Shown: positions 258 through 30,148, counted from the stretch's first letter. The stretch is DNA of 30,148 nt from an uncultured Deinococcales bacterium (GCA_964244895.1 CAXTKV010000042.1:1-30148), one strand, 5' to 3'. Program-made: numbers and translations. The notes: generated from the sequence alone by a model not told the origin.

Positions 258-305
258 GAACACCGTCAGGCACGCGTGATTTAATTCGCGTCCCAGACGG
301 TGTTC
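258..305. repeat. Dispersed palindromic doublet (GAACACCGT-N5-ACGGTGTTC family), spacing 25 bp
   Basis: GAACACCGT caggc ACGCG ... CGCGT cccag ACGGTGTTC; centres 269 and 294. Confidence 0.9.
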
Positions 306-312
306 CTGAAAC

Positions 313-1395
313 TCAGATGTACTTCTCGAGATCCGGGTTGGCCTTCATGCGTTCGACCAGCTTCTTGATGTCCTGCGTGCGATCCTTGCGGGCCACCAGG
401 GTCACGTTGCCATCGCGCACGATCACCACGTCTTCCAGGCCGATGGTCACGATCAAATCCTCGCCGGTGGTGGTGTAGAGGATCGCGCCGGAGGTGTCCA
501 ATCCCAGGTGCTGTCCGACGCTGACGTTCGGGTCGGCGGTCTGCATCAATCGGGCCACGGCGTTCCAGTCGCCCAGGTCGTCCCATTCAAACTTGGCGGG
601 AATGACCAGCACGCGGCGGGAACGTTCCATGATGGCGCGGTCGATCGGGGATTTGGGGATCGATTCGAAAGCCGTCTGCATCGCGGCTCTCGGGCCGTTG
701 GCGACGGGTTCGAGCGCATCCAGAAGCTCCGGGGCGTGCGCGCGGAATTCCTCGATGATGGTTTTCACGGTGAAGATGAACATGCCCGCGTTCCAGAAGT
801 AACGTCCGGTCGAAAGCATCTGCTCGGCGGTCTCGAGGTCGGGCTTCTCCACGAAGCGGGCGACCTCGTGGACGGTGTGCGATCCGATCTCGCGGCGCAC
901 AACGTCGGTTTCGATGTACCCATAACCGGTCGCGGGAAACGTGGCCGTCATGCCCAACGTGACGATGCCGCCGTCCAATCGTGCGGCTTGCGCGGCTGCC
1001 TCGACCGTCTCCTGAAAGGCCAGCACATCACCGACGCGGTGATCGGACGGGAACACGCCCATGACGGCATCCGGGCCGTGGTGCGCCCGCACGCGCAACG
1101 CGGCCAGCAGCACGGCGGGCGCGGTGTCGCGGGCCATCGGTTCGACCACCAGGTTTTCCAGGGGCAAATCCGGCAGGTGCTCCAAGATCAAGCCCCGGTG
1201 CTGCTGCCCGGTCACGATGTAAACGCGTTCCAGCCCACCGCACAGGGGTTCCAGGCGGTCGGCGGTGGCTTGCAGCAAGCTGCGTCCCGTGCCATCCAGC
1301 GCCAGGAATTGCTTGGGCTTGGCGCGCCGGGAGAGCGGCCAGAAGCGCTCGCCGCTGCCGCCAGCCAGGATCACGGGGATCAGGGTCTCGCTCAT
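313..1395 (-). CDS. manC: Mannose-1-phosphate guanylyltransferase
   Basis: VILAGGSGERFWPLSR..PKQF, EP..RDTAPA, PSDH, P.TGYGYI, FVEKP, WNAGMF and WDDLGDW motifs. TAGACT lies 6 nt before the ATG. Confidence 0.95.
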   Translation of the reverse strand: MSETLIPVILAGGSGERFWPLSRRAKPKQFLALDGTGRSLLQATADRLEPLCGGLERVYIVTGQQHRGLILEHLPDLPLENLVVEPMARDTAPAVLLAALRVRAHHGPDAVMGVFPSDHRVGDVLAFQETVEAAAQAARLDGGIVTLGMTATFPATGYGYIETDVVRREIGSHTVHEVARFVEKPDLETAEQMLSTGRYFWNAGMFIFTVKTIIEEFRAHAPELLDALEPVANGPRAAMQTAFESIPKSPIDRAIMERSRRVLVIPAKFEWDDLGDWNAVARLMQTADPNVSVGQHLGLDTSGAILYTTTGEDLIVTIGLEDVVIVRDGNVTLVARKDRTQDIKKLVERMKANPDLEKYI

Positions 1396-1440
1396 CGGGG
1401 CAGTCTAGGCCAGATTCCTTAAGGGGGGGTTTAAGGCGTG

Positions 1441-1537
1441 GGTGAAAGTTCAAAAGGTGAAAGAAAATACTCGAGGCGCGACGCACGATGGGGTCTTGAA
1501 CTTCCACTTTTACCTTTCCCCTTTTCGCTTTCCCTGT
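1441..1537. repeat. Degenerate heptamer run (TYNNCTT x6) with a purine-rich counterpart upstream
   Basis: 1496-1537 reads ttgaact tccactt ttacctt tcccctt ttcgctt tccctgt. 1441-1467 is purine-rich and partly complementary (aagttcaa / ttgaactt). Confidence 0.5.
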
Positions 1538-1538
1538 C

Positions 1539-2267
1539 TCACTGTTCATGGTCGAACCCGGCCTTGAGCGCCCCCCAGCGCGAGTTATTCAGGCTGACAT
1601 CGGGCGGGATGTGAACCCTGGCGGATGATCTCGAGCCGGGTTGCACGCCGGGGTTGCGGCGGTGCGCCAGTTCAAAGACGCTCTTGCGTTCGGTCACGAC
1701 GTGGAGCACGTCATCTTGAACGCGATCAAGGTTGAGCATCAACGACAGAATTTCCGCAGCGATCACGTCGGTGAAATCCGCGCTGGTGAATTGATCGTCG
1801 AAGGCGATGGGGTACCGCCAGACGGCGTCCTTGAAGGTCGTGCGCACAATCAACGCGTTACGGGCAGACCTGGCGGCTTCCTCGGCCACGGTTTTGGTCA
1901 GGCTGTAGTAGTTGCTCGGGTTGGGCGCGTCGGTTTCCGTGTACAGGCCGCGTTCTCCGTCGAAGACGTAATCGGTGGAAAAATGCACCAGCCTTCCCGG
2001 TGCGTGCCGCGCGACGTGGCGCGTGCCCGCGACGTTGACGGCCCAGCACTGCTCGCGTTCCTTCTCGGCCTTGGCCACGTCGGTGTAGGCCGCCAGGTGC
2101 AGCACGATATCGGGTTGCGCAGCCTCGAGCGCATCTGCCACGGCGGTTTCGTCGGTGATGTCCAGGTCGCGGCTCGGTGGCGCCGTCACGTTCCAGCCGC
2201 GAGCCTCGAGTTGTGGGATCAGTTCCTTGCCCATGCGGCCATGGCCGCCCGTCACAAACAGGTTCAC
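1539..2267 (-). CDS. rfbD: dTDP-4-dehydrorhamnose reductase (RfbD/RmlD-family SDR)
   Basis: VTGG.G.MG, LDIT, H.AAYT.V..AE, STDYVFDG, Y.E.D.PNP.NYY..TK motifs. Start placed at GTG 2267 because TAACCT lies 6 nt upstream; the ORF track gives 2273. Confidence 0.88.
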   Translation of the reverse strand: MNLFVTGGHGRMGKELIPQLEARGWNVTAPPSRDLDITDETAVADALEAAQPDIVLHLAAYTDVAKAEKEREQCWAVNVAGTRHVARHAPGRLVHFSTDYVFDGERGLYTETDAPNPSNYYSLTKTVAEEAARSARNALIVRTTFKDAVWRYPIAFDDQFTSADFTDVIAAEILSLMLNLDRVQDDVLHVVTERKSVFELAHRRNPGVQPGSRSSARVHIPPDVSLNNSRWGALKAGFDHEQ

Positions 2268-2374
2268 CCGCACAGGTTAACGCACCGGGACAAAAACTCG
2301 AACCGGACGGATTGCGCAGGTGACAGCTCGAGGGTCGCGTCATCGACCACAGAACCTCGAGGCTGGATTCTCGA

Positions 2375-2433
2375 GAAGACCGTGCTGGACGATGTTTCTT
2401 GTGAATCAGAAACCACTGTGCTGGACGGTCTTA
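2375..2433. repeat. Dispersed palindromic doublet, spacing 36 bp
   Basis: GAAGACCGT gctgg ACGATGTTT ... TGT gctgg ACGGTCTTA; centres 2386 and 2422; overlaps the GntR stop codon. Confidence 0.8.
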
Positions 2434-3216
2434 ATGCGACGGCTGCAATTCGACCACGAAATCGTAACGGTCGCCCCGGTACTGGCTGCGAACGAATTCG
2501 ATGGGTGCGCCAGCCGCATCCCAGGTCACGCGCAGGATCGACAGGATCGAAGCGCCCTCGGGAACTTCCAGCAATCGGGCGGTGGTCGCGTCGGCGGGCG
2601 CGGCGCGCAGGTGCTGGATGGCGCGGTGGGGCGTGAAACCTCTGGTGCGCAACAAATCGTAGAGGCTGCGGTTCTGCACGTCCTCCAGGCGCAAATCTCC
2701 GGCGACCTGCTCGGGCAAGCTTGAAGTCTCGAGCGCGAGCGGCGCGCCGTCGGCGGTGCGCAATCGGCGCAGGCGGGCGATGCGCGCGGAAGGCCCCAGC
2801 CCGAGCGAGAGGGCTTCGTCGGGCGATGGCCTGCCGTGCTCAAAAGACAGCACCCGACCGCCGGGCACGAAACCCCTGGAGCGCATGTCCTCGGAAAAAC
2901 TGGTCAGGGCGCTCAGGCTCTGCACGATCCGGCGCGGCGCGACGTAGGTTCCAGAACCGTGGCGGCGGATCAGCACGCCGTCCGCCTCGAGCCCCAGCAA
3001 GGCCTGGCGCACCGTCATGCGGCTGACGCCGAGCGCGTCGGCCAGATCGCGTTCTGAAGGTAACGCACTGCCTTCCGGAAGGTCTCCGGCATCGATGCGT
3101 TCCAGCAACCCGCGCCGGATTTGCAGGTACACCGGGGTCGGACTCTGCGGGTCGAGCGTCACCTGCAAGCCGACGCGGACGGTCGGGCGGCGATCAGTGC
3201 GGGCGGTTCGGGTCAT
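2431..3216 (-). CDS. GntR-family regulator, HutC subfamily (wHTH + UTRA)
   Basis: PVYLQI...LPSERDLA..LGVSRMTVRQAL..L..DG.L.RRHGSGTYV HTH; C-terminal UTRA (RLR.ADG.PLALE, SLY, EF.RS.YRGDRY). Exact start uncertain. Confidence 0.93.
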   Translation of the reverse strand: MTRTARTDRRPTVRVGLQVTLDPQSPTPVYLQIRRGLLERIDAGDLPEGSALPSERDLADALGVSRMTVRQALLGLEADGVLIRRHGSGTYVAPRRIVQSLSALTSFSEDMRSRGFVPGGRVLSFEHGRPSPDEALSLGLGPSARIARLRRLRTADGAPLALETSSLPEQVAGDLRLEDVQNRSLYDLLRTRGFTPHRAIQHLRAAPADATTARLLEVPEGASILSILRVTWDAAGAPIEFVRSQYRGDRYDFVVELQPSH

Positions 3217-3227
3217 GGTTCGGGGTT

Positions 3228-3246
3228 ACTGTACCAGTATTAGACC
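3228..3246 (-). promoter_or_regulatory. Candidate GntR operator overlapping a -10 box (TACAGT) of the gntR promoter
   Basis: Minus strand GGTCTAATACTGGTACAGT matches 3489-3507 at 14 of the first 17 positions. Confidence 0.6.
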
Positions 3247-3488
3247 TGTCGATGTTCGAGCCCGTTCGCAGTTCAGGCCCGGAATCTCGAGCCGGAACCG
3301 ACGGCGCGAGGGGCATCCGATACCGTTCGATGACCGCGTCTCAGGTCAGAGAAAGCGCCGTCCCAAAGCGACTCTCGAGCCACAGCTCATTCACACCTCG
3401 GCCCTTTTCGACCGTCATCAACATTTGAGCACACCGCAGCGAGCGCACGGGCTCGAGGACGCAGACGTTCGAGCGCATCTTGTTCGGT

Positions 3489-3507
3489 GGTCTAGGACTG
3501 GTATAAG
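3489..3507 (+). promoter_or_regulatory. Candidate GntR operator overlapping an extended -10-like box (TGgTATAAG) of the ABC operon
   Basis: GGTCTAGGACTGGTATAAG; TGGTCTA/TGGTATA half-sites resemble DasR/NagR-type boxes. Confidence 0.6.
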
Positions 3508-3546
3508 CTGATCGCGTTTTACAACCAGCAATCCCCAGGAGGTTCG

Positions 3547-5358
3547 ATGATGAAAAAGTCGTACAACGGGCTTTCGTACAAAGGAATCACCGCAGCATTG
3601 GTCGGCCTGGGCGTTCTGACAGCCACCCTGACGGGCGCGTTGGCGGGTCCACCGGAGGGCGCCAAGAAAATGCCCGCCTACACGGGCATCGGCCTTCAGG
3701 CGGGCAAGGCGGGCGGCACGCTGACGCTGGCCCTCGGCAACTCGCCGCAGACGTTCAACTACTACGGCGCAATCGACAGCAACGGTCAACGCATCGCGCA
3801 GCACATGTTCGATGGCCTGATCGAAGCCAACTTACAAACCGGCAAGATCGAACCCGCGCTGGCCGAATCCTGGACGATCAGCCCGGACGGCAAGGCCTAC
3901 ACCTTCAAGCTGCGCCAGGGCGTGAAATGGCACGACGGCGCGGAATTCACCGCCGACGACGTGATCTTCACCTTCGATCAGGTCATCACCGACCCGGAAG
4001 CCAAGGGCGGGGATTTCGCCAACTTTTCAAAGGACGGCGTCAAGTACAAGTTTGAAAAACTGGACAAGTACACCGTCAGGATCACGTTGCCCTTCTCGAG
4101 CGGCGCGTTCCTGGTGCAGATGCGCACCTTCATCATGCCCAAGCACAAGCTCTTGAAATACAGCGTCGAGGGCGGCGCGAAACCCGCCGACATCAACGAT
4201 GCCTGGGCGACCAACAGCCCGCTTTCGGACATCGTCGGTACGGGCGCGTACAAGCTCAGCAGTTACACGCCCGGCCAGAAGGTCTCCTTGACCAAGAACC
4301 CGGATTACTGGAAGGTCGATTCCAAGGGCACGCCGCTGCCGTACATCGACAAGCTCGACTACCTGATCCTGGTCGGCCCCGCCGCGCAGGAAGCCGCCTT
4401 CCGAGCGGGCACGCTGGACGCCTTGGACATCAGCGGCGCGCAGTTCCCGGATTTCAAGCAGCAGGAAGTCAAGGGCGCACCCTTCAAGGTCGTGTCGCAG
4501 CTCAAGGACGCGATCTACGGCAGCCCGCCGCACTTGGCCTTCAACTTCGACGCCGCCGATCCTGATCTGGCCAAGGTCTTCGGGAATTACAAATTCCGCG
4601 AGGCGATGCAGTCCGCCGTCAACCGCCAACGCATCATTGAAAGCGTCTACAACGGTCAGGCGCAACTGCCCGGCCACATGGGCGTGCCGCCCGCAGGCGT
4701 GTTCTACACGGACACCCGCAAGTACCTGGGCGAGTTCGATCTCAAGACCGCCGCCGCCGCGCTGGACGACCTGGGCCTCAAGGACACCGACGGCGACGGC
4801 GTGCGCAACATCAGCGCCAGCAAGCAGCTCGAGTTCAGCCTGACCTACGGCACGGATTCTGCCGTCTACCCACCGCTGGCCACGATCCTGCAAAACGATT
4901 TCAAATCGATCGGCGTCAAGGCGAACCTCAAGGGCGTGCTCTCGAGCACCCTGTTGTCCACGGGACTTTCGGGCAATTACGAGGCGATCATCGTGGCCCT
5001 GGGCGATCAGCCCGACCCGGAACTCAGAAAGCCGATCTGGCAACCCGGCGGCAGCCTGTACTACTGGCACCGCAGCACACAACCCACCAAAGACGGCGGC
5101 CCAGCCAACACCAAGGCCATGGCGGGTTGGGAAAAGCGCCTGTACACGATCTTCGAGAAGGGCACGCAATCGAGCGATCAGAGCGTGCGCGCCGCGCTGT
5201 ACTCCGAAGGTCAGGTGCTGACCGCCAAGTACCTGCCGGTGATCATGATCGCCAAGCCCGCCAACATCACGGTCACGCGCAACACGCTCGGGAATTTCGT
5301 GTACTCGCTCGGCGTGATTCCCGGTTACAACCCGGTGCCGCTGTACTACTTCAAGTGA
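3547..5358 (+). CDS. ABC transporter substrate-binding protein, family 5 (DppA/OppA-like), copy 1
   Basis: Signal peptide; P.LAESW..SPDGK.YTFKLR.GVKWHDG..FTADDV.FT; VGTG.YKL; KNPDYWK; SD AGGAGG. Confidence 0.95.
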   Translation: MMKKSYNGLSYKGITAALVGLGVLTATLTGALAGPPEGAKKMPAYTGIGLQAGKAGGTLTLALGNSPQTFNYYGAIDSNGQRIAQHMFDGLIEANLQTGKIEPALAESWTISPDGKAYTFKLRQGVKWHDGAEFTADDVIFTFDQVITDPEAKGGDFANFSKDGVKYKFEKLDKYTVRITLPFSSGAFLVQMRTFIMPKHKLLKYSVEGGAKPADINDAWATNSPLSDIVGTGAYKLSSYTPGQKVSLTKNPDYWKVDSKGTPLPYIDKLDYLILVGPAAQEAAFRAGTLDALDISGAQFPDFKQQEVKGAPFKVVSQLKDAIYGSPPHLAFNFDAADPDLAKVFGNYKFREAMQSAVNRQRIIESVYNGQAQLPGHMGVPPAGVFYTDTRKYLGEFDLKTAAAALDDLGLKDTDGDGVRNISASKQLEFSLTYGTDSAVYPPLATILQNDFKSIGVKANLKGVLSSTLLSTGLSGNYEAIIVALGDQPDPELRKPIWQPGGSLYYWHRSTQPTKDGGPANTKAMAGWEKRLYTIFEKGTQSSDQSVRAALYSEGQVLTAKYLPVIMIAKPANITVTRNTLGNFVYSLGVIPGYNPVPLYYFK

Positions 5359-5365
5359 CCGTCAA

Positions 5366-5400
5366 GGCTCGAGGGGAGCGTTCCCCTCGAGCTATTTTTT
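5366..5400 (+). terminator. Intrinsic terminator or stabilising hairpin after SBP1
   Basis: GCTCGAGGGGA-gcgt-TCCCCTCGAGC followed by TATTTTTT. Confidence 0.8.
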
Positions 5401-5414
5401 CGGCGATCGGCTCA

Positions 5415-5472
5415 AAACACCGTCACAGACGATGTTCTCGAGGAATAGAAAAACGCGTGCTGAACGGTGTGC
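5415..5472. repeat. Dispersed palindromic doublet, spacing 35 bp
   Basis: AAACACCGT cacag ACGATGTTC ... CGCGT gctga ACGGTGTGC; centres 5426 and 5461. Confidence 0.85.
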
Positions 5473-5514
5473 TGGCTCAAGGAAGCTCGAGCCAGGAATC
5501 TTCAAGGAGGAACA

Positions 5515-7272
5515 ATGCGTCGAACCACGTTGTTGACCGCCACCCTGACGGGTATCGCGCTCACCGGGGCGCTGACCGCGCTGGCGGCCACGCCGGACGG
5601 CAAGCTCTCCCGGATGCCGGGACTGAACCTGAGCATCGGCAAATCGGGCGGCACCTACACGCTCGCCTTGCCCGCCAGCCCCGGATCGTTTAACTACTAC
5701 GGCATCACCGACAACAACGCTTACACCGTGATCGGCAACGTCTTCGAGGGCCTGGTCGAGTACAACCTCGAGACCTACAAGATGGAACCCAACCTGGCCG
5801 AATCCTGGACGACCAGCCCGGACGGCAAGATCTGGACCTTCAAGCTCCGGAAATCCGTCAAATGGCACGACGGCGCGGACTTCAGCGCCGACGACGTGGT
5901 TTTTACCTTCAAGAACTTTATTTTCAACACCGAAGCGCGCGGCAATTCCGCCGCCGACTTCCCGGATGCCAAAGTTGAAAAAGTGGACGCCGACACCGTG
6001 CGCTTCACGCTCTCCAAGCCCTCCGGCGCGATTTTGCAAAGCCTGCGGTTGTTCATCCTGCCGCGCCACAAACTCCTCAAATTCACACCCGAAGGCGGCG
6101 CCAAGGCCGCCGATGTCAACACGCCCTGGGGCACCGGCACCGACCTCAAGGAAATCGTCGGCACGGGGCCGTTCAAGTTTTCCAACTACGTGCCCGACCA
6201 GAAAGTCACGCTCGAGAAGAACCCGAACTACTGGAAGACCGACAGCGCGGGCAACCACCTGCCGTACCTGGACAAGCTCGAATACCTGATCATCAAGGCC
6301 CCCGAGCAGCGCGTGGCACAGCTCAAGGCGGGCAACCTGGACGCCTTGAACATCACCGGCGGGCAGTTCCCGGAACTCAAGCAAGCAGAGACGCAGGGCG
6401 CGCCCTTCAAGGTCGTCAAGGCGCTGGCCCTGTTCGGATCGCCACCGCACTTGTCTTTTAACTTCGACGCCAAAGACGCAGACCTGGCGCGCGTCTTTGC
6501 CAACGACAAATTCCGCCAGGCCGTGCAACCCGCCGTCAACCGCGAACGCATCATCGATCAGGTCTTCAGCGGCCTGGCGACCCTGCCGGGAACGCCCGTC
6601 GCACCCGTCTCGAGCTGGTACACCGACACGACCAGCTACCTGGGGAAGTACGATCTCAAGGCCGCCAACACCGCGCTGGACGCGTTGGGCCTGAAGGACA
6701 CCGACGGCGACGGCGTGCGCAACGCCGGAACCAAAAACCTCGAGTTCTCGCTGATCGTCCCGACCGACAACGCGTTTTTTGACGGCCCACCGATCGGCAC
6801 GATCATCCAGAACGACCTCAAGGCCATCGGTCTCAAGGCCAACTTGCAACCCTTGCAGAACAGCGCCGTCTTCGCCAAACTTTCAGCCGGTGACTTCGAG
6901 GCCGCGATCTACGGCTTCGGCAACCAGCCCGACCCGCAGTTGCGCAAGGCCATCTGGCAACCCGGCGGGCAGTTGTACTACTGGCACCAGTCCATGCGCA
7001 CCAAGGACGCCAGCAAGCCTGACCTGACCAAGATGAAAAGCTGGGAGAAGCGCATCTACACGATCTTCGATCAGGCCGAAGCGCTGGTGGATCAATCGCA
7101 ACGCAAGGCGCTCTACGACGAATGGCAGTTGCTGAACGCCCGGTATTTGCCGGTGATCATGATCGCCAAGGCCGCGAACATCGCCGCCGTCAGCAACAAG
7201 GTCGGGAATTTCGTGTACAACCTCGGGCCGATCCCCGGTTACGTCACGAACCAGATCATCTACCTGAAGTGA
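5515..7272 (+). CDS. ABC transporter substrate-binding protein, family 5, copy 2 (paralogue of copy 1)
   Basis: Same motifs as copy 1 with long identical stretches (GSPPHL.FNFDA.D.DLA.VF, LGLKDTDGDGVRN, IWQPGG.LYYWH). ATG 5515 follows SD AAGGAGG. Confidence 0.95.
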   Translation: MRRTTLLTATLTGIALTGALTALAATPDGKLSRMPGLNLSIGKSGGTYTLALPASPGSFNYYGITDNNAYTVIGNVFEGLVEYNLETYKMEPNLAESWTTSPDGKIWTFKLRKSVKWHDGADFSADDVVFTFKNFIFNTEARGNSAADFPDAKVEKVDADTVRFTLSKPSGAILQSLRLFILPRHKLLKFTPEGGAKAADVNTPWGTGTDLKEIVGTGPFKFSNYVPDQKVTLEKNPNYWKTDSAGNHLPYLDKLEYLIIKAPEQRVAQLKAGNLDALNITGGQFPELKQAETQGAPFKVVKALALFGSPPHLSFNFDAKDADLARVFANDKFRQAVQPAVNRERIIDQVFSGLATLPGTPVAPVSSWYTDTTSYLGKYDLKAANTALDALGLKDTDGDGVRNAGTKNLEFSLIVPTDNAFFDGPPIGTIIQNDLKAIGLKANLQPLQNSAVFAKLSAGDFEAAIYGFGNQPDPQLRKAIWQPGGQLYYWHQSMRTKDASKPDLTKMKSWEKRIYTIFDQAEALVDQSQRKALYDEWQLLNARYLPVIMIAKAANIAAVSNKVGNFVYNLGPIPGYVTNQIIYLK

Positions 7273-7278
7273 ACCTGG

Positions 7279-7322
7279 CTCGAGGGGCGATTTCACGGTG
7301 GCCTCGCCCCTCGAGATGTTTT
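7279..7322 (+). terminator. Hairpin after SBP2 (weak terminator or mRNA stabiliser)
   Basis: CTCGAGGGGCGA (7279-7290) pairs with TCGCCCCTCGAG (7304-7315), followed by ATGTTTT. Confidence 0.65.
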
Positions 7323-7324
7323 AG

Positions 7325-7382
7325 GAACACCGTCCCACACGCTAAAATAAGTGACTCGAGAACCGCGTCCCAAACGGTCTTC
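7325..7382. repeat. Dispersed palindromic doublet, spacing 35 bp
   Basis: GAACACCGT cccac ACGC ... CGCGT cccaa ACGGTCTTC; centres 7336 and 7371. Confidence 0.85.
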
Positions 7383-7465
7383 TCAGGGAACGAAGAACGA
7401 CAAAGATTCTTCAGAGCGCCCATTCGGACAACTCGAACCCACACTCGAAACCCAGAGACTGAACC

Positions 7466-8437
7466 ATGGCGACTTACATCTTCCGACGCGTGCTAGCGAT
7501 CTTCCCGACACTTCTATTGGTTTCGGCGGTGTCGTTCTTCGTGATTCAACTCCAACCGGGCAGCTTCATCGACGCGTACCTCGAGGACCCGCGCTTCACC
7601 AAGGAGACCGCCGAACGCATCCGCGTGCAGGTCGGACTGGACAAACCGCTGGTGGTGCAGTACGGCAACTGGGTCTGGGGCATCGTGACGCGCGGGGATT
7701 TCGGTTTTTCGTTCGTCAACAACCGTTCCGTCACCAGTTTGATCGGGGAACGAATCATCTACACCATCGAGATCGCCGGGCTGGCGCTGGTGTTCTCGTG
7801 GCTGATCGCGGTGCCGCTCGGGATTTACACGGCGGTCAGACGGAATTCCCCGGCGGACGCGACCGCCAGCTTCGCCGGGTACATCGGGCTGGCGGTTCCA
7901 GATTTCCTGCTGGCGCTGATTCTGGTCTCGATCATCCTGAAACTGGGCGGCACGAACGTGGGCGGGTTGTTCAGCAAGCAGTACATCGATGCGCCGTGGA
8001 GTTGGGCCAGGCTCGGCGATCACCTCTCGCACCTGTGGTTGCCATTGCTGGTCTTGGGGCCGAACCACATTGCGACCCTGCAACGCCAGATGCGCGCCAG
8101 CATGCTGGACGTGCTGAACCAGGATTACGTGCGCACCGCCAGAGCCAAAGGCTTGTCTGAACGCATCGTCGTGTACCGCCACGCCGTCAGGAACGCGATC
8201 AACCCGCTCGTGTCGCTGGCGGGCTTGCAGGTTCCCGAACTGATCAACGGCACGATCATCGGTTCGCTGGTGCTGGGCTTGCCGACCATCGGGCCTTTTT
8301 TGTACGACTCTTTGTTGAACAAGGATCAGTACGTCGTGATGACGATGCTGCTGCTGTCCAGTCTGATGCTGATGGTCGGCAACCTGCTGGCGGACGTGAC
8401 GCTGGCGGCAGTCGATCCGCGAATCCGTTACGAGTAA
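7466..8437 (+). CDS. ABC transporter permease, DppB/OppB type
   Basis: YI.RR.L..PTL..VS..F..IQL.PG; GLDKPL..QY..W; GDFG.S; EAA loop DYVRTARAKGL...V..RHAVRNA. Confidence 0.95.
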   Translation: MATYIFRRVLAIFPTLLLVSAVSFFVIQLQPGSFIDAYLEDPRFTKETAERIRVQVGLDKPLVVQYGNWVWGIVTRGDFGFSFVNNRSVTSLIGERIIYTIEIAGLALVFSWLIAVPLGIYTAVRRNSPADATASFAGYIGLAVPDFLLALILVSIILKLGGTNVGGLFSKQYIDAPWSWARLGDHLSHLWLPLLVLGPNHIATLQRQMRASMLDVLNQDYVRTARAKGLSERIVVYRHAVRNAINPLVSLAGLQVPELINGTIIGSLVLGLPTIGPFLYDSLLNKDQYVVMTMLLLSSLMLMVGNLLADVTLAAVDPRIRYE

Positions 8438-8463
8438 CCGATCATCTCGAGCCGTATTCTCGA

Positions 8464-8511
8464 GAACACCGTCCCAGACGCAATTAAAGAACCTCGTGCC
8501 AGACGGTGTTC
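8464..8511. repeat. Dispersed palindromic doublet, spacing 25 bp
   Basis: GAACACCGT cccag ACGCA ... TCGT gccag ACGGTGTTC; centres 8475 and 8500. Confidence 0.9.
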
Positions 8512-8530
8512 CCAGAGCGAAGGAATCTTG

Positions 8531-9649
8531 ATGAGCCAAGCCGTCAACCCGCAACCCACGCTCGAGCAGGCGGTCGTGAAATCCGCGACCCCGCTGCAAC
8601 TCGCGCTCAAACGGTTCCGCAAATCCAGGGCGGGCGTGGTCGGCTTCTGGATTCTGGTCGTGCTGTACACCGTCGCGCTCTTCGCGGGGTTCCTGGCGCC
8701 GTACAACATCACCGAACAGCACTACGAATTCCAGGCGCAACCGCCGCAACGCCTGCACCTGATTCACGACGGGCAACTGCGCTGGCCGTTCGTGTACCCC
8801 GCCAAAGTCACGCGCGACGCCGTGACCTTCGTCAAGACCTACACCGAGGACGCGACCGCGCCGCAACCGATCCGTTTGTTCGTGCAGGGCGAGGAGTACA
8901 ACCTGTTCGGCTTCATCAAGACCAAGCAGCACCTGTACGGCGTGGACGGCGGGTATTTCTTTCCGCTCGGCACCGACAAATTTGGGCGCTGCGTGCTTTC
9001 ACGAATGCTGGTCGGATCGCAGGTGTCCTTGACGGTCGGCGTGATCGGGATTCTGATCTCGTTCAGCATTGGGATTCTGATGGGCGGCATTTCTGGGTTT
9101 TACGGCGGCTGGGTGGATGCGCTAATTCAACGAATGATCGAGGTCTTACTTTCATTTCCGCGATTACCACTCCAGCTAGCGCTGGCCTACATCATTCCGG
9201 CAAGCGTGCCCAGCACAACCGTTTACCTTGGGATCGTCGGAGTTTTCGCCTTTATAGGATGGGCAGGTCTGGGACGCGTAATTCGCGGGCAAGTGCTGGC
9301 GATTCGCGGCACGGACTACGTGCAGGCCGCTCGAGCACTCGGGGCGAGTGATCTACGAATTATCCTACGGCACATCACGCCGAACCTGACCAGCTATTTG
9401 ATCGTGACTGCCACGGTCGCCCTGCCCAACTACATATTGGCCGAAAGCGCGCTGTCATTCCTGGGATTGGGCGTCAAGGAACCGATGACGAGTTGGGGTT
9501 TGATGCTCAAGGACGCGCAGAATTTCGAGACGCTCCGACTTTACCCGTGGTTGCTTGCACCCGGAGCCATGATCATCCTGAGCGTGATGGCCTTCAACTT
9601 CGCCGGTGACGCCCTGCGCGATGCGGCGGACGTGACCACGCGCAACTGA
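8531..9649 (+). CDS. ABC transporter permease, DppC/OppC type
   Basis: LGTDKFGR.VLSR...GSQVSL.VG; GG.VD..IQR; DYVQAARALGAS..RII.RHI.PN; ESALSFLGLGV..P..SWG. Confidence 0.95.
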   Translation: MSQAVNPQPTLEQAVVKSATPLQLALKRFRKSRAGVVGFWILVVLYTVALFAGFLAPYNITEQHYEFQAQPPQRLHLIHDGQLRWPFVYPAKVTRDAVTFVKTYTEDATAPQPIRLFVQGEEYNLFGFIKTKQHLYGVDGGYFFPLGTDKFGRCVLSRMLVGSQVSLTVGVIGILISFSIGILMGGISGFYGGWVDALIQRMIEVLLSFPRLPLQLALAYIIPASVPSTTVYLGIVGVFAFIGWAGLGRVIRGQVLAIRGTDYVQAARALGASDLRIILRHITPNLTSYLIVTATVALPNYILAESALSFLGLGVKEPMTSWGLMLKDAQNFETLRLYPWLLAPGAMIILSVMAFNFAGDALRDAADVTTRN

Positions 9650-9705
9650 GGCTCGATGAACGAATGCTGGAACTGGAATGCCGCCAAGACGCGGATTCTC
9701 GAGCG

Positions 9706-10467
9706 TCAAACGCAGGCGTTCGCCCTGTTCGACCACTCGAGTTGAACCGTGTACGCGCCGATTTGCTTGAACTTCCACGGGCAGATATCGCCGATCTCGC
9801 CGTTGGTGTCGTCGTACCAGCCCTGGCCGGGCACGGGATCGGTGATGGCCTCGCAGAGTTCGTGCGAACTGGTGGCGGTCAGGGCCTCGAAGATGGGCCG
9901 TCCACCACGGCAGCCGCTGCACTCCGGGTACGGCATGACGGCGTAGTACAGGCCCTCGCGGATGCTGTTGTGATAGCCGCAGAAAACCTTGCACGAGGCA
10001 TCCTGACCGTCGGTGACCGTCACGCCCGGTGGCAAATAAATGAAATACAGCCTGTCCGCCGTCGGCGCGGGCGCGGCGTTATCGGCGATGCGCTGCTCGA
10101 GGAATCGCCGGATCGACGCATCGGTGGTCGTCGCGCGCGGTGCGGGCGCGCTCGAGGTCAACGAACCGATGAAACTGCCGCGACCGATGACCTTGCCGGG
10201 AACATCGTATTCACCCATGGCATCCAGCAACGGACTGGTCACGATGAACTCGAAGAAGGCGTTCAGTTGACCCGAGAGCGCCAGCATTTCAGCCTCCTTC
10301 CAGGCACTGCCCCAGAAAATCGTGAAGACCTCGACCGATTGCAACAACGGCCCGCCCCTGTAGGTCAGTTGCGGCGAGGCGGCCTTCTCGAGCGCAACCT
10401 GTCCTGGCTTAAAGAGTGGCACGATGCGAATTGGGGTGGTTTTGCTCGCGGCGCTGGCTTTCGTCAT
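9706..10467 (-). CDS. PHI-1/EXORDIUM-like protein (bacterial homologue)
   Basis: LTYRGGPLL..V.VF.IFWG, FCGYH, SHELCEAITDP, GWYD...GEIGDIC, VQLEWSN...C motifs. ATG 10467 follows SD AGGAGG. Confidence 0.7.
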   Translation of the reverse strand: MTKASAASKTTPIRIVPLFKPGQVALEKAASPQLTYRGGPLLQSVEVFTIFWGSAWKEAEMLALSGQLNAFFEFIVTSPLLDAMGEYDVPGKVIGRGSFIGSLTSSAPAPRATTTDASIRRFLEQRIADNAAPAPTADRLYFIYLPPGVTVTDGQDASCKVFCGYHNSIREGLYYAVMPYPECSGCRGGRPIFEALTATSSHELCEAITDPVPGQGWYDDTNGEIGDICPWKFKQIGAYTVQLEWSNRANACV

Positions 10468-10676
10468 GGTGCCTCCTGTTGCCGGAGTTCGAGGCTCGCG
10501 CTTCCGGACGGTGATGGCATTCTCGAGACGCGCCATTCAGAGCATGCCAGCGCGCTCGGGGTGAACGACCTGGATCGGTTCGGAATCTCGCGCCGTTGCG
10601 GTCATGCCCGAGGGCGCGTTCTTCTCGACTATACGCGGGTTTCAGAGCGCGATCTGAGGCCTCGCGCGCTTATGCA

Positions 10677-10725
10677 CTACATCGTCCAGGACGACATGCT
10701 CGAGACTGCATCCAGGACGGTCTCG
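10677..10725. repeat. Dispersed palindromic doublet (degenerate), spacing 26 bp
   Basis: CTACATCGT ccagg ACGAC ... GCAT ccagg ACGGTCTCG; centres 10688 and 10714. Confidence 0.7.
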
Positions 10726-10805
10726 CTCGGTCGCAATGCGCGCGGTACATCTGCCCTGTTCGCTTTTCATCTCGGGCACTCATCGCGCGCGGCTATACTT
10801 CTCAC

Positions 10806-11321: not shown

Positions 11322-11329
11322 GCCAGACC

Positions 11330-11752: not shown

Positions 11753-11810
11753 GAACACCGTCCCAGACGGTATTTCCTAATCTCGAGAATATGCGTGCCA
11801 GATGGTGCTC
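11753..11810. repeat. Dispersed palindromic doublet, spacing 35 bp
   Basis: GAACACCGT cccag ACGGTATTT ... TGCGT gccag ATGGTGCTC; centres 11764 and 11799. Confidence 0.85.
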
Positions 11811-11852
11811 CCACACATCACGCTTCCTCGAGACCTGATCGCGAGGATCGCT

Positions 11853-13525: not shown

Positions 13526-13573
13526 AAAGAGCGTCCTGGACGGTGTTCTACATTCGCGTCGCAGACGGTATTC
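13526..13573. repeat. Dispersed palindromic doublet (two right-type arms), spacing 25 bp
   Basis: GCGT cctgg ACGGTGTTC ... CGCGT cgcag ACGGTATTC; centres 13537 and 13562; overlaps the GntR2 stop codon. Confidence 0.85.
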
Positions 13574-15008: not shown

Positions 15009-15031
15009 TAACGCCGTCCCAGACGGTGTTA
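15009..15031. repeat. Single full palindromic site of the dispersed family
   Basis: TAACGCCGT cccag ACGGTGTTA; no clear partner. Confidence 0.85.
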
Positions 15032-15542: not shown

Positions 15543-15590
15543 GAACATCGTTCGGCACGCATCTCAAGAATACCGTCAGGGACGATGTTA
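15543..15590. repeat. Dispersed palindromic doublet, spacing 25 bp
   Basis: GAACATCGT tcggc ACGCA ... GAATACCGT caggg ACGATGTTA; centres 15554 and 15579; the last bases overlap the aldolase -10 (TAAGGT). Confidence 0.8.
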
Positions 15591-15600
15591 AGGTGAATCC

Positions 15601-17723: not shown

Positions 17724-17752
17724 ACGCCTGCCCGAGAAAACTGAATTGATCT

Positions 17753-17800
17753 GGGCACCGTTCAGCACGCATTTTTATAGTTGCGTGCTGAACGGTGTTC
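17753..17800. repeat. Dispersed palindromic doublet, spacing 25 bp
   Basis: CACCGTTCAGCACGCA tttttatagt TGCGTGCTGAACGGTG (perfect 16-bp inverted repeat); centres 17764 and 17789. Confidence 0.9.
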
Positions 17801-18750: not shown

Positions 18751-18770
18751 GGCTCGAGGTTGAGATTCGA

Positions 18771-18818
18771 GAACACCGTCTGAGACGCAGTATTCAAACT
18801 GCGTCCCGGACGGTGTTC
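18771..18818. repeat. Dispersed palindromic doublet, spacing 25 bp
   Basis: GAACACCGT ctgag ACGCAGT attcaa ACTGCGT cccgg ACGGTGTTC; centres 18782 and 18807. Confidence 0.9.
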
Positions 18819-19077: not shown

Positions 19078-19246
19078 TCGTAGGGAACGGGCGTGAAGAT
19101 CAACTTTCGCAGGAGGTTTAATACCGCATCAGGCAGGCCTGCTGTTCCCTCGAGATGGGTCGAACACGTTTCGCGGTGTTCTCGAGACATGGTTTGGCGC
19201 GACCGATCCGACAGTTGGTCGTGTCGGAACCGCGTCGGGCGTCGGC

Positions 19247-19295
19247 TTGACAAATCCAAAGCCTTCCTTTAAATTGAATGAACATTCATTCAATT
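19247..19295 (+). promoter_or_regulatory. Sigma70-type promoter with an overlapping TetR operator
   Basis: TTGACA (19247-52), 17 bp, TAAATT (19270-75); perfect inverted repeat AATTGAATGAA-ca-TTCATTCAATT (19272-19295). Confidence 0.85.
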
Positions 19296-19319
19296 GAATG
19301 TCAGATCAGAAAGAGTCCG

Positions 19320-20000
19320 ATGCCCAGAAAAAAACCAAATCCCGAACTTCAAGAAAAGCTGGCCGCCGTCAAACGCGACCAGATCCTCGATGCCGCCCGC
19401 GCGGTCTTCGCAGAAAAAGATTTCCACCGCGCCACCATCAAGGACGTGGCAGCGCGCGCGGGCGTGGCGGACGGCACGGTCTACAACTATTTTGAAAACA
19501 AGAACGCGTTGATCCTGGGATTGATGGATCGCTTCACGCAGGGCGTTCAGCCACAATCAGCGGCGCAAACCGCATCGCGCAAAGCCAAGCTCGAGCGACC
19601 CGCACCGTTCGACCTGGAAGGCTTCGTGCGCACCAGCACGCGCGAACGCTTCGCGATGCTGTCCGAGGAAAGCATCAGTTTGTTCCAGGCGATCCTGCCG
19701 GAAATCATCGCCAACCCCGACCTGCGGGCGCTCTACCGCGAGCGAATCATCGCGCCCAGCCAGGCGGGTGCAAACCAGGTCGTCGAGGCCATCAGCCGCT
19801 CGAGCGGAATGGCGCGCGATCAAGTCAGGCTGGGCTTGCAACTCGAGGCCGCCATGTTCATCGGTCTGATCGTGCAGCGCATCATCGGTGATGCGCTTCT
19901 GGAGCAGCACTGGGGCGATCTGCCGGACGCGATCAGCGATCTGATGCTCAAAGGATTCGGCGCGGCCAAGCCCGGTCAACCCCGAAAAAAGCGCGGCTGA
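19320..20000 (+). CDS. TetR/AcrR-family regulator
   Basis: R.QILDAARAVFAEK.FH.ATIKDVA.RAGVA.GTVYNYF.NK..L HTH. Confidence 0.93.
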   Translation: MPRKKPNPELQEKLAAVKRDQILDAARAVFAEKDFHRATIKDVAARAGVADGTVYNYFENKNALILGLMDRFTQGVQPQSAAQTASRKAKLERPAPFDLEGFVRTSTRERFAMLSEESISLFQAILPEIIANPDLRALYRERIIAPSQAGANQVVEAISRSSGMARDQVRLGLQLEAAMFIGLIVQRIIGDALLEQHWGDLPDAISDLMLKGFGAAKPGQPRKKRG

Positions 20001-20018: not shown

Positions 20019-20081
20019 AAACACCGCCCCCAACGCGTATTCTCGAGAAAAACCGTAGTTCTCTCGTCCAGAACGGTGTTC
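20019..20081. repeat. Dispersed palindromic doublet (degenerate), spacing 40 bp
   Basis: AAACACCGC cccca ACGCG ... TCGT ccaga ACGGTGTTC; centres 20030 and 20070 (the only off-register pair). Confidence 0.65.
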
Positions 20082-21402: not shown

Positions 21403-21461
21403 GAACACCGTCCTGGACGGCATTCTCGAGACCAACAGGAAATGCGTGCCAGACGGTCTTC
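21403..21461. repeat. Dispersed palindromic doublet, spacing 36 bp
   Basis: GAACACCGT cctgg ACGGCATTC ... TGCGT gccag ACGGTCTTC; centres 21414 and 21450. Confidence 0.88.
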
Positions 21462-22388: not shown

Positions 22389-22436
22389 GAACACCGTCCA
22401 GCACGCACTTATTTATTCGCGTCCTGGACGGTGTTC
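22389..22436. repeat. Dispersed palindromic doublet, spacing 25 bp
   Basis: GAACACCGT ccagc ACGCA ... CGCGT cctgg ACGGTGTTC; centres 22400 and 22425. Confidence 0.9.
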
Positions 22437-25329: not shown

Positions 25330-25377
25330 GAGCACCGTCCTGCACGCGTTATTTGATTCGCGTCCTGGACGGTCTAT
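25330..25377. repeat. Dispersed palindromic doublet, spacing 25 bp
   Basis: GAGCACCGT cctgc ACGCG ... CGCGT cctgg ACGGTCTAT; centres 25341 and 25366; overlaps the Uma2 stop codon. Confidence 0.85.
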
Positions 25378-25971: not shown

Positions 25972-26019
25972 AAACGCCGTCCCAGACGCATATTTTATTT
26001 CGTGTACGGGACGGTGTTC
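25972..26019. repeat. Dispersed palindromic doublet, spacing 25 bp
   Basis: AAACGCCGT cccag ACGCA ... GTGT acggg ACGGTGTTC; centres 25983 and 26008. Confidence 0.85.
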
Positions 26020-27568: not shown

Positions 27569-27587
27569 GATTTCTCCGTGATTTATT

Positions 27588-27603
27588 AGTCAGCTAACTG
27601 ACT
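27588..27603. promoter_or_regulatory. Candidate TetR autoregulatory operator
   Basis: AGTCAG-ctaa-CTGACT palindrome overlapping the end of a minus-strand TGgTATAAG box, upstream of the SD. Confidence 0.7.
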
Positions 27604-28109
27604 TATACCATTTCAGAGGGTGAATTGAGTCGGTTTTTGATCACAGAATTCTTTCAAAAAGCTTCGGAAATTCATCGGCTCGGGTGCCAGAATATGCGAC
27701 CAGCACGTCGTTTTTGAGATGCGCTGTAAGTCTTGTGTAATGCCGCACAGGGCACACTGTCTGGCAGTGAAGCATTTGTGCATCGAGTTCCAAAAAAACC
27801 TGATCGCGGCGTTCGCCGCCGCGCTTGAACCTGCCTTCGACTCACGGCCCAGCTTTCGTTCACTTCGTGCGCGAGACGGAGAGCCGACGGGCATTTGACG
27901 TGCGCCAAACGCTGTCTTCCGGAGTTCTCGCTGCGCTCTTGACGTTGGTTCTGAGCGCATTCTGGCCGTCTGGCGGCGAGGCTCAAATCAAGCCGATCAG
28001 CATCAAAACGGACGACCGCAATACGCCGACTGCGAGTAAAGCCATCCTTGTCCAAGCTGCCATCAAAAATCCGAATCCGCCCGTACCAGACTTCAGAGGG
28101 CGTGCAGCC

Positions 28110-30148
28110 GTGAAGCCGCGCCTGTTCGCGCTGTTGTCGATCCTGGGCTTGTCGATTCCAGGTGCTTCAGCCAGCGCCGGGGTGTACTTGCCGCTGGTCA
28201 ACGTCGGGACGCAGTTGCGCTGGTCGAACACGCCGGACGATTTCCGGCTGGTCGTGACCGCGCCGCAGAGCGCGAGCCAGACCGCGCAGAACCCCGTCAA
28301 ATCCAGCCCAGTCAAGCTCGAGATTTACAGCCCGAACTTGAACCTTCAGGATTACGCCAACAAGCGCGACAACCCGCAGTACATCGGTGACGAGCGCTAC
28401 AACAAGGCGGATTTCTTCACGCGATTCCGGTTGCGCAATTCCAAAAACGAGGTCGTGACCGAAAAGACCTTCGGCCTGAGCCGGGCGCACACCTGGGCAA
28501 CGTTTCTGAATCAGAACCTTCAGCCCGGAAGCTACCCGTTGGAAATCAAATCCGGCGGCTACGGCAAGAACGCCTTCGGGCTGGTGGCGAGCGGCAACGT
28601 GCGGCTCGAGGCGAGCCAGTTCACCGTCAACGCTCGGGGCAAGATCGGCACGGAATTGTTGGCCGCGCGTTTGCCCGTCTCTGCTTCCTTGATCGGGCAG
28701 CGCGTGCGGGTTTCCAACTACGACGCGGACGGCGAGAACGAACTGGTGTTGTACGCGATCTACCCGAACGGCCAGCGCCACCGTCTGGTGTCCTCGGGCG
28801 ACGTGACCTGGGCGTCGGAAGATGTCTTGGTCACGAAGGAACTCGTGGGGACGTGGCAAATCGTGGCGCGGATCGGCAAGAAGCCGAAGCAGTTCTCGAA
28901 CAGCTTCGCGTTTCGGCTGCAAGCGGTCGGGGTGAAAGCCAGCCCGTTGTACGCGCAGTTGCCCGTGACCGCGCCGACCCATCCGCCCGTGACGCCACCA
29001 GCGCCAGCCACCCCACCACCAGCGACTCCTGTAGCGCAGACCCTCGGGCCAATTCAGGTGTCCGTCGTGGACGAGGCCGGACAGGGCGTGCCGGGCGCAG
29101 GTTACGACATCGCGGGCGAGTCTGAGCGCCGCGTCAGCTTTCGGTTGCCGCGAGGTTACGTGCGCACTGCCACGGAAATCACCGATGGGGACGGCATTCT
29201 CGAGGATCGAGGGAACACCGTGCTGGTCGGTGTTCGTGGCGCGAGCATCCGGTTTACGGTTCGCCACATGCGCGCGACATTGACCGTCAGAACGGTCGCG
29301 GAACTCGGATCGGAACGCATCAATCTGGAGGGCGTGCCGGTCACGGTGGACGGCTGGACGCAAGCTTCAGGCTCGAGCTTCAACCTCAGGCCGGGAACGT
29401 GGGTCGTCGAACCCACGATGCTGCCCGGAGCGCAGGCGCAAGCCGTGACGGTCGAGCTCACAGATGGCGCGAGTCAGACCGTGACCATCGCGTACCGGGT
29501 CGAGGCGAAGCTGCAACTCGAGGCGGATCGCTCAGTGTTGAGCATCGGTGATGCGGTCAAGTTGACGGCGGTGGCCAGCACGGAATTCCCGTACGCGGTT
29601 CCAGTAACGATGGCGCTCGGGTTGCCCGGTGAGCTTCACACGGATGCGCGATTGATGCTCCAGGGCCGAATTCAGGCCGACCGACCGCTCGCGTTCGAGC
29701 TTTTGGCAGACGCGATCGCGCCGTCACCCAGCGCGACGGTCGCGGCGCGACTCCAGCCGTTCGATCAATCCGAATCCGTGCAGCTCGAGATCAAGGCTTC
29801 ACCGACCGCAACCTCTCCCCCGCCACCCGCACCGCCCGCACCGACACCGCCAGCGCAGGCGGATCTGGAGGTCACGCACGGCGCCGAACCGAACCCCGTC
29901 GAGATCGGCAACACGGCGACCTACACCATCAACCTGACCAATTTCGGGCCGGACGCAGCGCAAAACGCTCGCGTTCGATTCCCGCTGGTGGATGGCGCGA
30001 AGCTCGAATCCTGGAGCGCCAGCCAGGGAAGCTGCGCGGTCGTTGACGGGGCGCTCGAGTGCGACCTGGATCGCCTTGAGGCTGGCGCGACCGGGCTGGT
30101 GCTGGTCGTGGTCAAACCGATGGCGCTGGGCTTGTTGAACACGACCGT
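28110..30148 (+). CDS. Secreted multidomain DUF11-containing protein (partial, runs off window end)
   Basis: Open frame from GTG 28110 to the window end; absent from the ORF track because it has no stop. Signal peptide MKPRLFALLSILGLSIPGASA; two Pro/Thr/Ala linkers; DUF11 motif ADLEVT...EPNPVEIG..ATYTI.LTN.GPD.A.N..V. Confidence 0.88.
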   Translation, partial: MKPRLFALLSILGLSIPGASASAGVYLPLVNVGTQLRWSNTPDDFRLVVTAPQSASQTAQNPVKSSPVKLEIYSPNLNLQDYANKRDNPQYIGDERYNKADFFTRFRLRNSKNEVVTEKTFGLSRAHTWATFLNQNLQPGSYPLEIKSGGYGKNAFGLVASGNVRLEASQFTVNARGKIGTELLAARLPVSASLIGQRVRVSNYDADGENELVLYAIYPNGQRHRLVSSGDVTWASEDVLVTKELVGTWQIVARIGKKPKQFSNSFAFRLQAVGVKASPLYAQLPVTAPTHPPVTPPAPATPPPATPVAQTLGPIQVSVVDEAGQGVPGAGYDIAGESERRVSFRLPRGYVRTATEITDGDGILEDRGNTVLVGVRGASIRFTVRHMRATLTVRTVAELGSERINLEGVPVTVDGWTQASGSSFNLRPGTWVVEPTMLPGAQAQAVTVELTDGASQTVTIAYRVEAKLQLEADRSVLSIGDAVKLTAVASTEFPYAVPVTMALGLPGELHTDARLMLQGRIQADRPLAFELLADAIAPSPSATVAARLQPFDQSESVQLEIKASPTATSPPPPAPPAPTPPAQADLEVTHGAEPNPVEIGNTATYTINLTNFGPDAAQNARVRFPLVDGAKLESWSASQGSCAVVDGALECDLDRLEAGATGLVLVVVKPMALGLLNTT
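29177..29235. repeat. Dispersed palindromic doublet inside the DUF11 CDS, spacing 36 bp
   Basis: AATCACCGA tgggg ACGGCATTC tcgaggatcgagg GAACACCGT gctgg TCGGTGTTC; centres 29188 and 29224. Confidence 0.75.

Follow-up and report, generated by a model that had tools for sequence, protein, structure and literature searches.

A palindromic site paired in helical phase across a Deinococcales genome is a candidate IHF-like DNA-bending signal

The sites of the HU/IHF family of DNA-bending proteins are among the closest described counterparts of the element reported here. In Borrelia, the site-preferring family member Hbb acts as a homodimer with a preferred AT-rich site near the origin, and in E. 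coli an IHF site lies within the RIB elements (reiterative ihf bacterial interspersed mosaic elements, BIMEs). E. coli IHF serves oriC, CRISPR and lambda recombination, covers 35 bp, places its proline kinks 9 bp apart and has about 300 sites with the consensus WATCARNNNNTTR (PMC8421141), and IHF and HU bind the oriC interspace in E. coli and T. maritima (PMC10325909). Here we analyse a window of 30,148 nucleotides from an uncultured Deinococcales bacterium (GCA_964244895.1 CAXTKV010000042.1:1-30148), in which a 23-bp palindromic site recurs in phased pairs. The window is contig C42 of genome G000, a 5.1-Mb assembly that is 91% complete and whose homologues of DdrO, DdrI, TTHA0139 and Thermus-type HU point to the Deinococcales; G numbers denote genomes, C numbers contigs of G000 and L numbers loci, while f and g label families and lower groups.

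In E. coli, IHF sites are found in the R1-R5M interspace of oriC, at iteron origins, in a CRISPR leader and at att sites. The site described here resembles them in its position at oriC, in its presence in plasmid origins and CRISPR leaders, and possibly in a pair of kink-like steps set 9 bp from each other between AT-rich flanks. It differs in being GC-rich and palindromic, and in number, as about 5,400 sites, mostly in phased pairs, stand against the roughly 300 of E. coli. Moreover, the carrier genomes G183 and G195 each hold a single HU-family gene, so that neither can encode an alpha/beta pair like the IhfA/IhfB heterodimer. Judged from sequence, the motif appears to work like an IHF site, although its consensus and the lack of a heterodimer set it outside the IHF class. 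Hbb (PDB 2NP2) provides a precedent for a homodimer within the family, but its site is AT-rich and we know of no genome-wide paired array of it. No description of the motif was found in the literature searched, with most subscription journals lying outside its coverage; an oriC comparison figure in PMC10325909 includes T. thermophilus and may bear on novelty. The comparisons made here and below also draw on PMC6868357, PMC4550694, PMC6006769, PMC3733652 and PMC8112702.

Scanning the window with a position weight matrix (PWM) recovered 17 pairs and a single site at 15009, and reproduced every coordinate and spacing that a first-pass annotation had given for the 17 pairs (Table 1). The pattern ACCGT-N5-ACG occurs 30 times in the window, compared with 1.41 +/- 1.11 times in 100 shuffles. 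Of 24 gaps of at least 40 bp between called genes, 17 hold a site, in agreement with the annotated preference for most intergenic gaps, and the direct arrangement of the 13526 and 15543 pairs was likewise upheld. The 29177 pair has the spacing first assigned to it, but its first site is weak and the pair sits within an open reading frame (ORF). Two descriptions required correction. The N5 centres do vary, with inverted-identical arms in only one of the 17 window pairs, yet they are not free, being mostly CC-N-G-S, and genome-wide the arms of 25-bp pairs covary. The linkers, described as unrelated, are indeed not clonal but show a positional profile, with CTCGAG in 472 of 1,988.

Genome-wide, the matrix scan of G000 detected 5,392 sites of at least 10 bits, compared with 83 in the reversed genome, with the consensus GAACACCGTCC-N-GSACG. 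They group into 3,328 loci, and doublets account for 1,988 of these. Adjacent sites are spaced by 25 bp in 868 and 26 bp in 153 cases, and by 34, 35, 36 and 37 bp in 48, 593, 222 and 14 cases, while random placement predicts 15-20 pairs at each distance. The peaks predicted at 25/26 and 35/36 bp were thus found, whereas the possible one at 46 bp is absent (1 pair); a smooth distribution, named beforehand as a refutation, was not seen. Small peaks shifted by half a turn exist at 30/31 bp (58 pairs) and 40-42 bp (52 pairs). Among 2,061 pairs spaced 22-45 bp, 1,881 fall at phase 0.25-0.6 of a 10.5-bp turn, which places the two dyads on roughly opposite faces of the helix. A phased protein-binding site in double-stranded DNA is the reading with the best support, its register being one of opposite faces and not of the same face; overall, the first-pass interpretation is partly supported. 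Strong half-sites point outwards in 985 of 1,028 doublets at 24-26 bp and in 630 of 841 at 34-37 bp, and the 29-31 bp class favours the reverse orientation.

The loci are under-dispersed, with a median of 1.5 kb between loci and mostly one locus per gap whatever the gap length up to about 1 kb, and they are sparse in accessory-looking contigs. About 98% of the doublets lie outside called genes, near stop codons (median about 21-23 nt), and those of the 25-bp class favour convergent gaps. No paralogue family in G000 is preferentially flanked by doublets.

Several properties indicate that the motif most likely acts as a signal in double-stranded DNA and not as a hairpin in RNA. When tandem gaps were oriented by transcription, the strands differed at one position in six class-by-distance comparisons, U-tracts were equal on both strands and GU pairs did not exceed AC mismatches; the strand-polarised hairpin with U-tract of an intrinsic terminator was not found. 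None of 15 terminator-like calls in positions 1-20,000 of the window coincides with a doublet, and an Rfam search gave no match. The arms of N5 covary in the 25-bp class (306/852 versus 146 +/- 8 expected), weakly at 35 bp (68/575 versus 46 +/- 6) and not at 36 bp (20/215 versus 17 +/- 4). Folding energies after arm swapping differ at 25 bp (-26.7 versus -25.6) and show no difference at 35/36 bp. Template-switch correction over a short spacer could be the source of the covariation in the short class.

Sites inside genes demonstrate that the motif sequence itself is under selection and that coding sequence is tuned towards it. Among 3,334 genes, 83 sites of at least 20 bits occur within coding sequences, compared with 6-9 under synonymous shuffles, and in-gene pairs take the same spacings as intergenic ones. 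A matrix trained on intergenic doublets only found 112 in-gene sites at 18 bits versus 14.7 expected. Across 571 orthologous segments, G000 holds 109 sites versus 41.7 and its relative G143 holds 23 versus 22.5, with a mean ratio near 1 for 14 permuted matrices. Even windows with at least 85% conserved residues are enriched, with 18 sites versus 9.2 +/- 2.2 at 10 bits and 10 versus 3.8 +/- 1.9 at 12 bits. For a 36-bp doublet in PheT, comparison with 16 orthologues shows no gap, and the doublet is accompanied by the loss of an otherwise invariant Cys. Altogether 217 in-gene sites were found, and the comparison with G143, which covered 1.34 Mb of that genome, gave alignments for 43 of them: 18 align without gaps, 19 lie in small-gap regions and 6 at gaps of at least 5 residues. 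The gapless sites and the synonymous tuning cannot come from insertion. In-gene sites lie in larger gaps (matched percentile 0.58, p 0.006). The doublets within DnaX are located in unalignable linkers and are therefore uninformative, and for one further test gene no orthologue was found in five genomes. A doublet scan of metagenomes yielded one true relative, L057, from a related species; when its intergenic doublet is set against the orthologous one on C118, the core agrees at 24 of 24 positions and the spacing stays at 25 bp in this single pair, against 3 of 12 linker bases and 70% identity at fourfold-degenerate sites. Two small-share DNA sequencing runs yielded no orthologous stretches fit for use. 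Scans for doublets in viral contigs found none and in plasmids one chance match, and in genome contigs there were 11 unrelated stretches among the matches listed.

In relatives, the site occurs as single copies at particular places. Among 364 genomes, expansion of the strict half-site is confined to G000 (2,170), with a mild one in G183 (52). A degenerate version is present at low copy number in 172 of 363 genomes, including 68 of 111 in g8, with higher counts in G183 (82), G195 (32) and G258 (16) and mostly 0 for controls; both tallies, but no other result, include the unpublished G324. Loci picked by the motif include iteron origins 5' of RPA (PF10134) genes in six cases, with the site between the iterons and an AT-rich stretch in five and among the iterons in one. 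They also include a site beside an integrase at a tRNA gene (L306), an att-side site (L314) and sites 5' of promoters, the att-side and promoter-side ones being examples, not tests, as they were chosen by motif. Some low-copy matches proved to be coding sequence of insertion sequences (an IS1595 transposase around 7 of 54 loci, partly overlapping) and were not counted. Since these loci were picked by the motif, oriC, RPA regions and CRISPR arrays were tested as unpicked sets.

Of the 48 origins that could be anchored, 30 carry the core YGY-N5-RCR at a constant offset in oriC, in four of the five families, compared with 1.3 (maximum 7) in 2,000 shuffles; a first anchoring of the origins had given 26 of 50. 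The core lies 33-35 bp before the anchor at the DNA unwinding element (DUE), between the last two DnaA-box groups and beside the DUE-proximal DnaA box. It is present in 5/7 origins of f1, 12/12 of f2, 6/9 of f3, 5/8 of f5, 2/8 of g22 and 0/4 of the other f4 genomes. Four of 52 origins could not be anchored, among them that of G000, whose own oriC carries an 18.5-bit site in the same gap; the anchored L338 looks misplaced and counts as a miss. For plasmid origins, a site of at least 10 bits was found 5' of RPA in 7 of 20 regions versus 0.19 expected, and in four of the seven it separates the final iteron from the AT-rich stretch; the 20 regions were drawn from about 150 matches, mostly by a near-complete N-terminus, and one was already in the degenerate-motif set. 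In type I-C CRISPR leaders, three of the six arrays found have a site whose start lies 35 bp ahead of the first repeat, namely that on C36 of G000 and two homologous arrays of G142. Single copies at these three kinds of place across the order point to a bending role of the IHF type. This ancestral low-copy element had escaped the first-pass annotation. As a separate observation, two CRISPR spacers contain the motif, one in G007 (L301, 1512-1544) and the first spacer of the array on C36 of G000 (near 30850). The spacer of G007 looks like a portion of a 26-bp doublet and agrees with C108 of G000 at 29 of 33 positions; mobile DNA carrying such sites may exist.

On balance, we consider it probable that the motif is the site of a Deinococcota DNA-bending protein that does the job of IHF, presumably a homodimer of HU, and that it was multiplied in G000 into about 2,000 phased pairs. 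In 99% of doublet sites, pyrimidine-purine (YR) steps fall at positions 6/7 and 15/16, a separation of 9 bp, and in 71% AA, AT or TT steps lie 5 bp outside them. A dyad-symmetric protein would kink the two CG/TG steps, contact the AT-rich steps 5 bp outside the kinks and wrap the AT-rich flanks. Each pair would hold two sharp bends. At 25/26 or 35/36 bp, or about 2.4 or 3.4 turns, the two dimers would be placed on roughly opposite faces of the helix, with the weaker inner AT-rich arm in common, giving a compact S-shaped fold about every 1.5 kb. Small repeats carrying the site of a host factor would have seeded the intergenic gaps, with young families still present in G183, G195 and G258; selection would then have kept core and spacing, let the linkers drift and built sites within genes by substitution. 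The leading candidate for the binder is HU. An HU-family gene is present in 71 of 71 genomes, often in single copy. G000 has three PF00216 genes (on C103, C117 and C10), all of HU type with best match 5EKA, and the arm tip reads GV[RK]P in 11 of 12 aligned proteins, where IHF has GRNP.

Several observations weigh against a bending site read by HU. D. radiodurans HU reportedly prefers four-way junctions and does not bend duplex DNA. The main HU of G000 is close to that of G134, a genome that shows no expansion, so nothing in the protein explains the expansion. The figure of 99% YR steps is partly mutational, since CG to TG is a very common mutation, and the GT/AC bases are 93% conserved, which resembles base readout. 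The shared-arm model is a guess, because the 35 bp covered by IHF (PMC8421141) exceed a spacing of 25 bp. The HU proteins of E. coli and T. maritima lack sequence specificity and occupy the oriC interspace only together with DnaA (PMC10325909). Some close pairs, about 5%, are spaced by 30/31 or 40-42 bp and take the other phase. The core is missing from 18 of 48 origins, including 4/4 non-g22 f4 and 6/8 g22 genomes, and related genomes are not independent in the origin count; likewise, the three CRISPR leaders with a site are homologous, and three of six arrays have no clear site there.

The chief competing explanation, which we regard as unlikely, keeps the architectural role and assigns the site to another reader, either the conserved ribbon-helix-helix (RHH)-like protein TTHA0139 (C44:7784-8008 in G000) or some other unrecognised dimer or tetramer. 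Two RHH dimers one turn apart would occupy the CGT/ACG half-sites, which are centred about 10 bp from each other, and would bend the DNA in the manner of Myxococcus CdbA. That nucleoid protein, a tetramer of the RHH type, is a sequence-preferring DNA bender with more than 500 sites, but it recognises a direct-repeat site and neither phased doublets nor an origin link are described in the excerpts of PMC7156744. TTHA0139 is single-copy in 99 of 101 Deinococcales genomes, has 29 invariant columns over 20 orthologues and shows the codon bias of a well-expressed gene (rank 94). It matches PDB 5YTP/5YTQ and gives weak fold matches to the RHH domains of PutA and ParD; these have E values above 1, however, no site lies 5' of its gene in any of 20 genomes (best score 2.9 bits), and nothing ties it to origins, whose interspace is the position of HU or IHF in the organisms tested so far (PMC10325909). 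We found no paper on PDB 5YTP or on the specificity of Thermus or Deinococcus HU, most subscription journals being outside the literature covered. The orthologue, with 74 residues, high conservation and no Pfam family, is a candidate nucleoid protein in its own right. Another protein, encoded at C258:1094-1573, was rejected as an order-wide binder, since 17 of 101 genomes have it and none of the 40 from f3 and f4 does. It is a basic protein of 159 residues with a KRGRKP tail and no Pfam match, conserved within the family and with distant multi-copy relatives in g8.

It is improbable that the doublets are an ordinary repetitive extragenic palindromic (REP) element or REPIN, or a miniature inverted-repeat transposable element (MITE), spread by transposition and now decaying, with the fixed spacing reflecting two element lengths. 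The likeness is considerable: REP/REPIN and E. coli BIME/RIB elements are extragenic inverted doublets near stop codons with preferred spacings, and fixed distances between REPs are described for REPINs (PMC3116915). The extragenic location, the convergent-gap preference and the arm covariation of the 25-bp class fit such an origin, as do the 6 of 43 in-gene sites at larger gaps. Furthermore, gaps with a doublet are a median of 53.5 bp longer than their G143 orthologues (48 gaps), compared with -3.5 bp for those without (82 gaps), and the site lies within recognisable repeat families in G183, G195 and G258. These longer gaps and repeat families make it likely that the intergenic copies arrived as insertions. 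In G183 (L001-L030, L074-L093) and G195 (L147-L148), a directional repeat holds a 36-bp pair of sites and is embedded in inverted arrays of degenerate 7-bp repeats. The G195 version is a sequence dialect of the G183 element at orthologous gaps, and G177 lacks the element in the one gap aligned. In G258 (L273-L298), the site is found once in a MITE-like repeat that measures about 110 bp and has TAGCA...TGCTA ends.

Clonal spread is nevertheless not borne out by the copies themselves, as 851 of the 854 doublets at 25 bp are distinct. Where two copies have the same linker, their flanks agree no more than background and their variable arm positions hardly more (0.754 versus 0.694), and near-identical linkers, in some excess (76 versus 20), also lack shared flanks. 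No target-site duplication stands out at G000 doublets, no 5' GTAG/GT[AG]G or CGTC tag was found at the doublets, whose flank consensus is CTCGA-like, and no hairpin signal accompanies the 35/36-bp class. No Y1_Tnp (REP-associated tyrosine transposase, RAYT) gene was detected in G000 (91% complete) or G183 (99%), while four relatives have a RAYT without motif expansion; CGTC REPs are also described without a cognate RAYT. Two clonal MITE or REPIN subfamilies with a linked RAYT, which the first-pass annotation had set as a refutation, were not found, and the comparison of orthologous gaps it had proposed showed longer gaps where a doublet is present, one orthologous doublet pair being available. 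Transposition leaves unexplained both the origin-linked single copies and the in-gene sites that arose by substitution, aligned without gaps and tuned synonymously in conserved peptide. A separate family of classical GTAG-tagged REP hairpins does exist in G000 (window 19010-19080 and 207-230), with 161 GTAGGGGC words genome-wide, though no Y1 transposase was found in that genome.

The hexamer CTCGAG, which often flanks or fills doublets, was also considered as their cause and rejected, its excess being family-wide (4.6-6.9 per kb) in genomes without expansion. It is a HIP1-like highly iterated palindrome with 21,883 copies in G000 (for example window 187-192) versus 1,773 for the next CTnnAG word; its density is about 3.3 per kb in G183, and it is nearly absent from g8 loci. 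A literature search found no paper on CTCGAG iteration.

A signal resembling DNA uptake sequences, spread by biased uptake and recombination (molecular drive) and read by a multimeric competence receptor, seems very improbable to us. Neisseria DNA uptake sequences and the uptake signal sequences of Pasteurellaceae share with the motif thousands of non-clonal copies about 1.5 kb apart, a preference for core genome and permissive coding regions, and frequent inverted pairs (PMC2397512). The median pitch of 1.5 kb with mostly one locus per gap, the in-gene sites built by substitution and lying in larger gaps, the depletion in accessory-looking contigs and the presence of ComEC and a highly expressed pilin would all suit such a drive. 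The motif differs in being a dyad-symmetric 23-mer with fixed helical pair spacing and no terminator polarity. Uptake does not account for the conserved single copies that genomes lacking the expansion keep at fixed places, in oriC, at plasmid origins and in CRISPR leaders, and ComEC is present in five of five genomes tested, with or without expansion.

We give hardly any weight to the idea of RNA hairpins (terminators or 3' stabilisers) or of weak extra sites of the repressor DdrO or the CRP-family protein DdrI: doublets do follow stop codons, the core YGY-N5-RCR is common to the radiation/desiccation response motif (RDRM; PMC8533742) and DdrI is abundant and tied to plasmid maintenance, but the hairpin tests above were negative, DdrI binds TGTGA-N6-TCACA (PMC11253593), and canonical RDRM-pattern sites form a group of their own in G000, 22 in number, with many of them at repair genes. 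The motif has neither the outer TT...AA bases of the RDRM nor its location at repair-gene promoters, in line with the first-pass view that it is not an RDRM. The canonical RDRM/DdrO regulon is itself recognisable in G000 (e.g. C149:4012, C105:2199 and C263:2701), its genes reading by their N-termini as gyrA, gyrB, uvrB, uvrC, uvrD, recQ and cinA. The attC, res and CRP-type sites were set aside on their consensus sequences, no search for an integron integrase being made.

Table 1. Sites and pairs of sites in the window, with spacings given centre to centre.
Feature	Coordinates	Strand	Score or basis
Doublet, 25 bp, strong halves outward	258..305		PWM 20.3/29.7 bits
Doublet, 36 bp	2375..2433		25.7/21.1 bits
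Doublet, 35 bp	5415..5472		19.7/25.9 bits
Doublet, 35 bp	7325..7382		25.2/23.5 bits
Doublet, 25 bp, within ABC-transporter operon; gap 36 bp longer than orthologous gap of G143	8464..8511		29.3/25.8 bits
Weak doublet, 26 bp, divergent genes on either side	10677..10725		12.3/14.9 bits
Doublet, 35 bp	11753..11810		30.0/20.9 bits
Doublet, 25 bp, direct arrangement	13526..13573		32.9/16.5 bits
Single near-symmetric site, no nearby partner	15009..15031		20.0 bits
Doublet, 25 bp, direct arrangement	15543..15590		21.4/18.5 bits
Doublet, 25 bp, sole window pair with inverted-identical N5	17753..17800		PWM scan
Doublet, 25 bp	18771..18818		25.9/32.4 bits
Doublet, 40 bp (minor 40-42 class)	20019..20081		15.1/20.1 bits
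Doublet, 36 bp	21403..21461		29.5/27.6 bits
Near-consensus doublet, 25 bp, 5' of recG; gap 59 bp longer than in G143	22389..22436		30.9/31.6 bits
Doublet, 25 bp	25330..25377		26.2/24.6 bits
Doublet, 25 bp	25972..26019		24.2/24.6 bits
Pair within coding sequence, 36 bp, first site weak; in ORF 28110-30146	29177..29235		4.7 and 23.1 bits

Further features of these genomes were recorded alongside. A site lies within 150 bp of 34 of the 69 tRNA calls of G000, and L036, L042 and L044, from g8 and g3 genomes, are perfect single palindromes of the motif directly 3' of tRNA-like genes. The words CGGCCG, CCCGGG, CCGCGG, GCCGGC, GACGTC and GGWCC are strongly avoided in G000, which suggests many restriction systems.

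If the motif is indeed the site of an IHF-like bending protein, it would answer how Deinococcus and Thermus, in whose genomes no IHF pair was found among those checked, bend DNA at oriC, at the iteron origins of secondary replicons and at CRISPR leaders. In its widest form, which we advance tentatively, the place of IHF in Deinococcota may be taken by a homodimeric bending protein that reads a GC-rich palindromic code not described before. One lineage may have written that code into about 2,000 phased pairs, reshaping essential proteins such as PheT and spelling out nucleoid folding at kilobase pitch, like nucleosome-positioning signals. G000 also offers a bacterial chromosome in which a putative binding motif is under pressure strong enough for codons and residues to change genome-wide and for helical phase to be held in thousands of pairs. 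Should the protein prove to be HU, the picture of a protein blind to sequence would call for revision in this phylum, and if the pairs bind a bending protein, a folding pattern of the chromosome would be encoded in its sequence.

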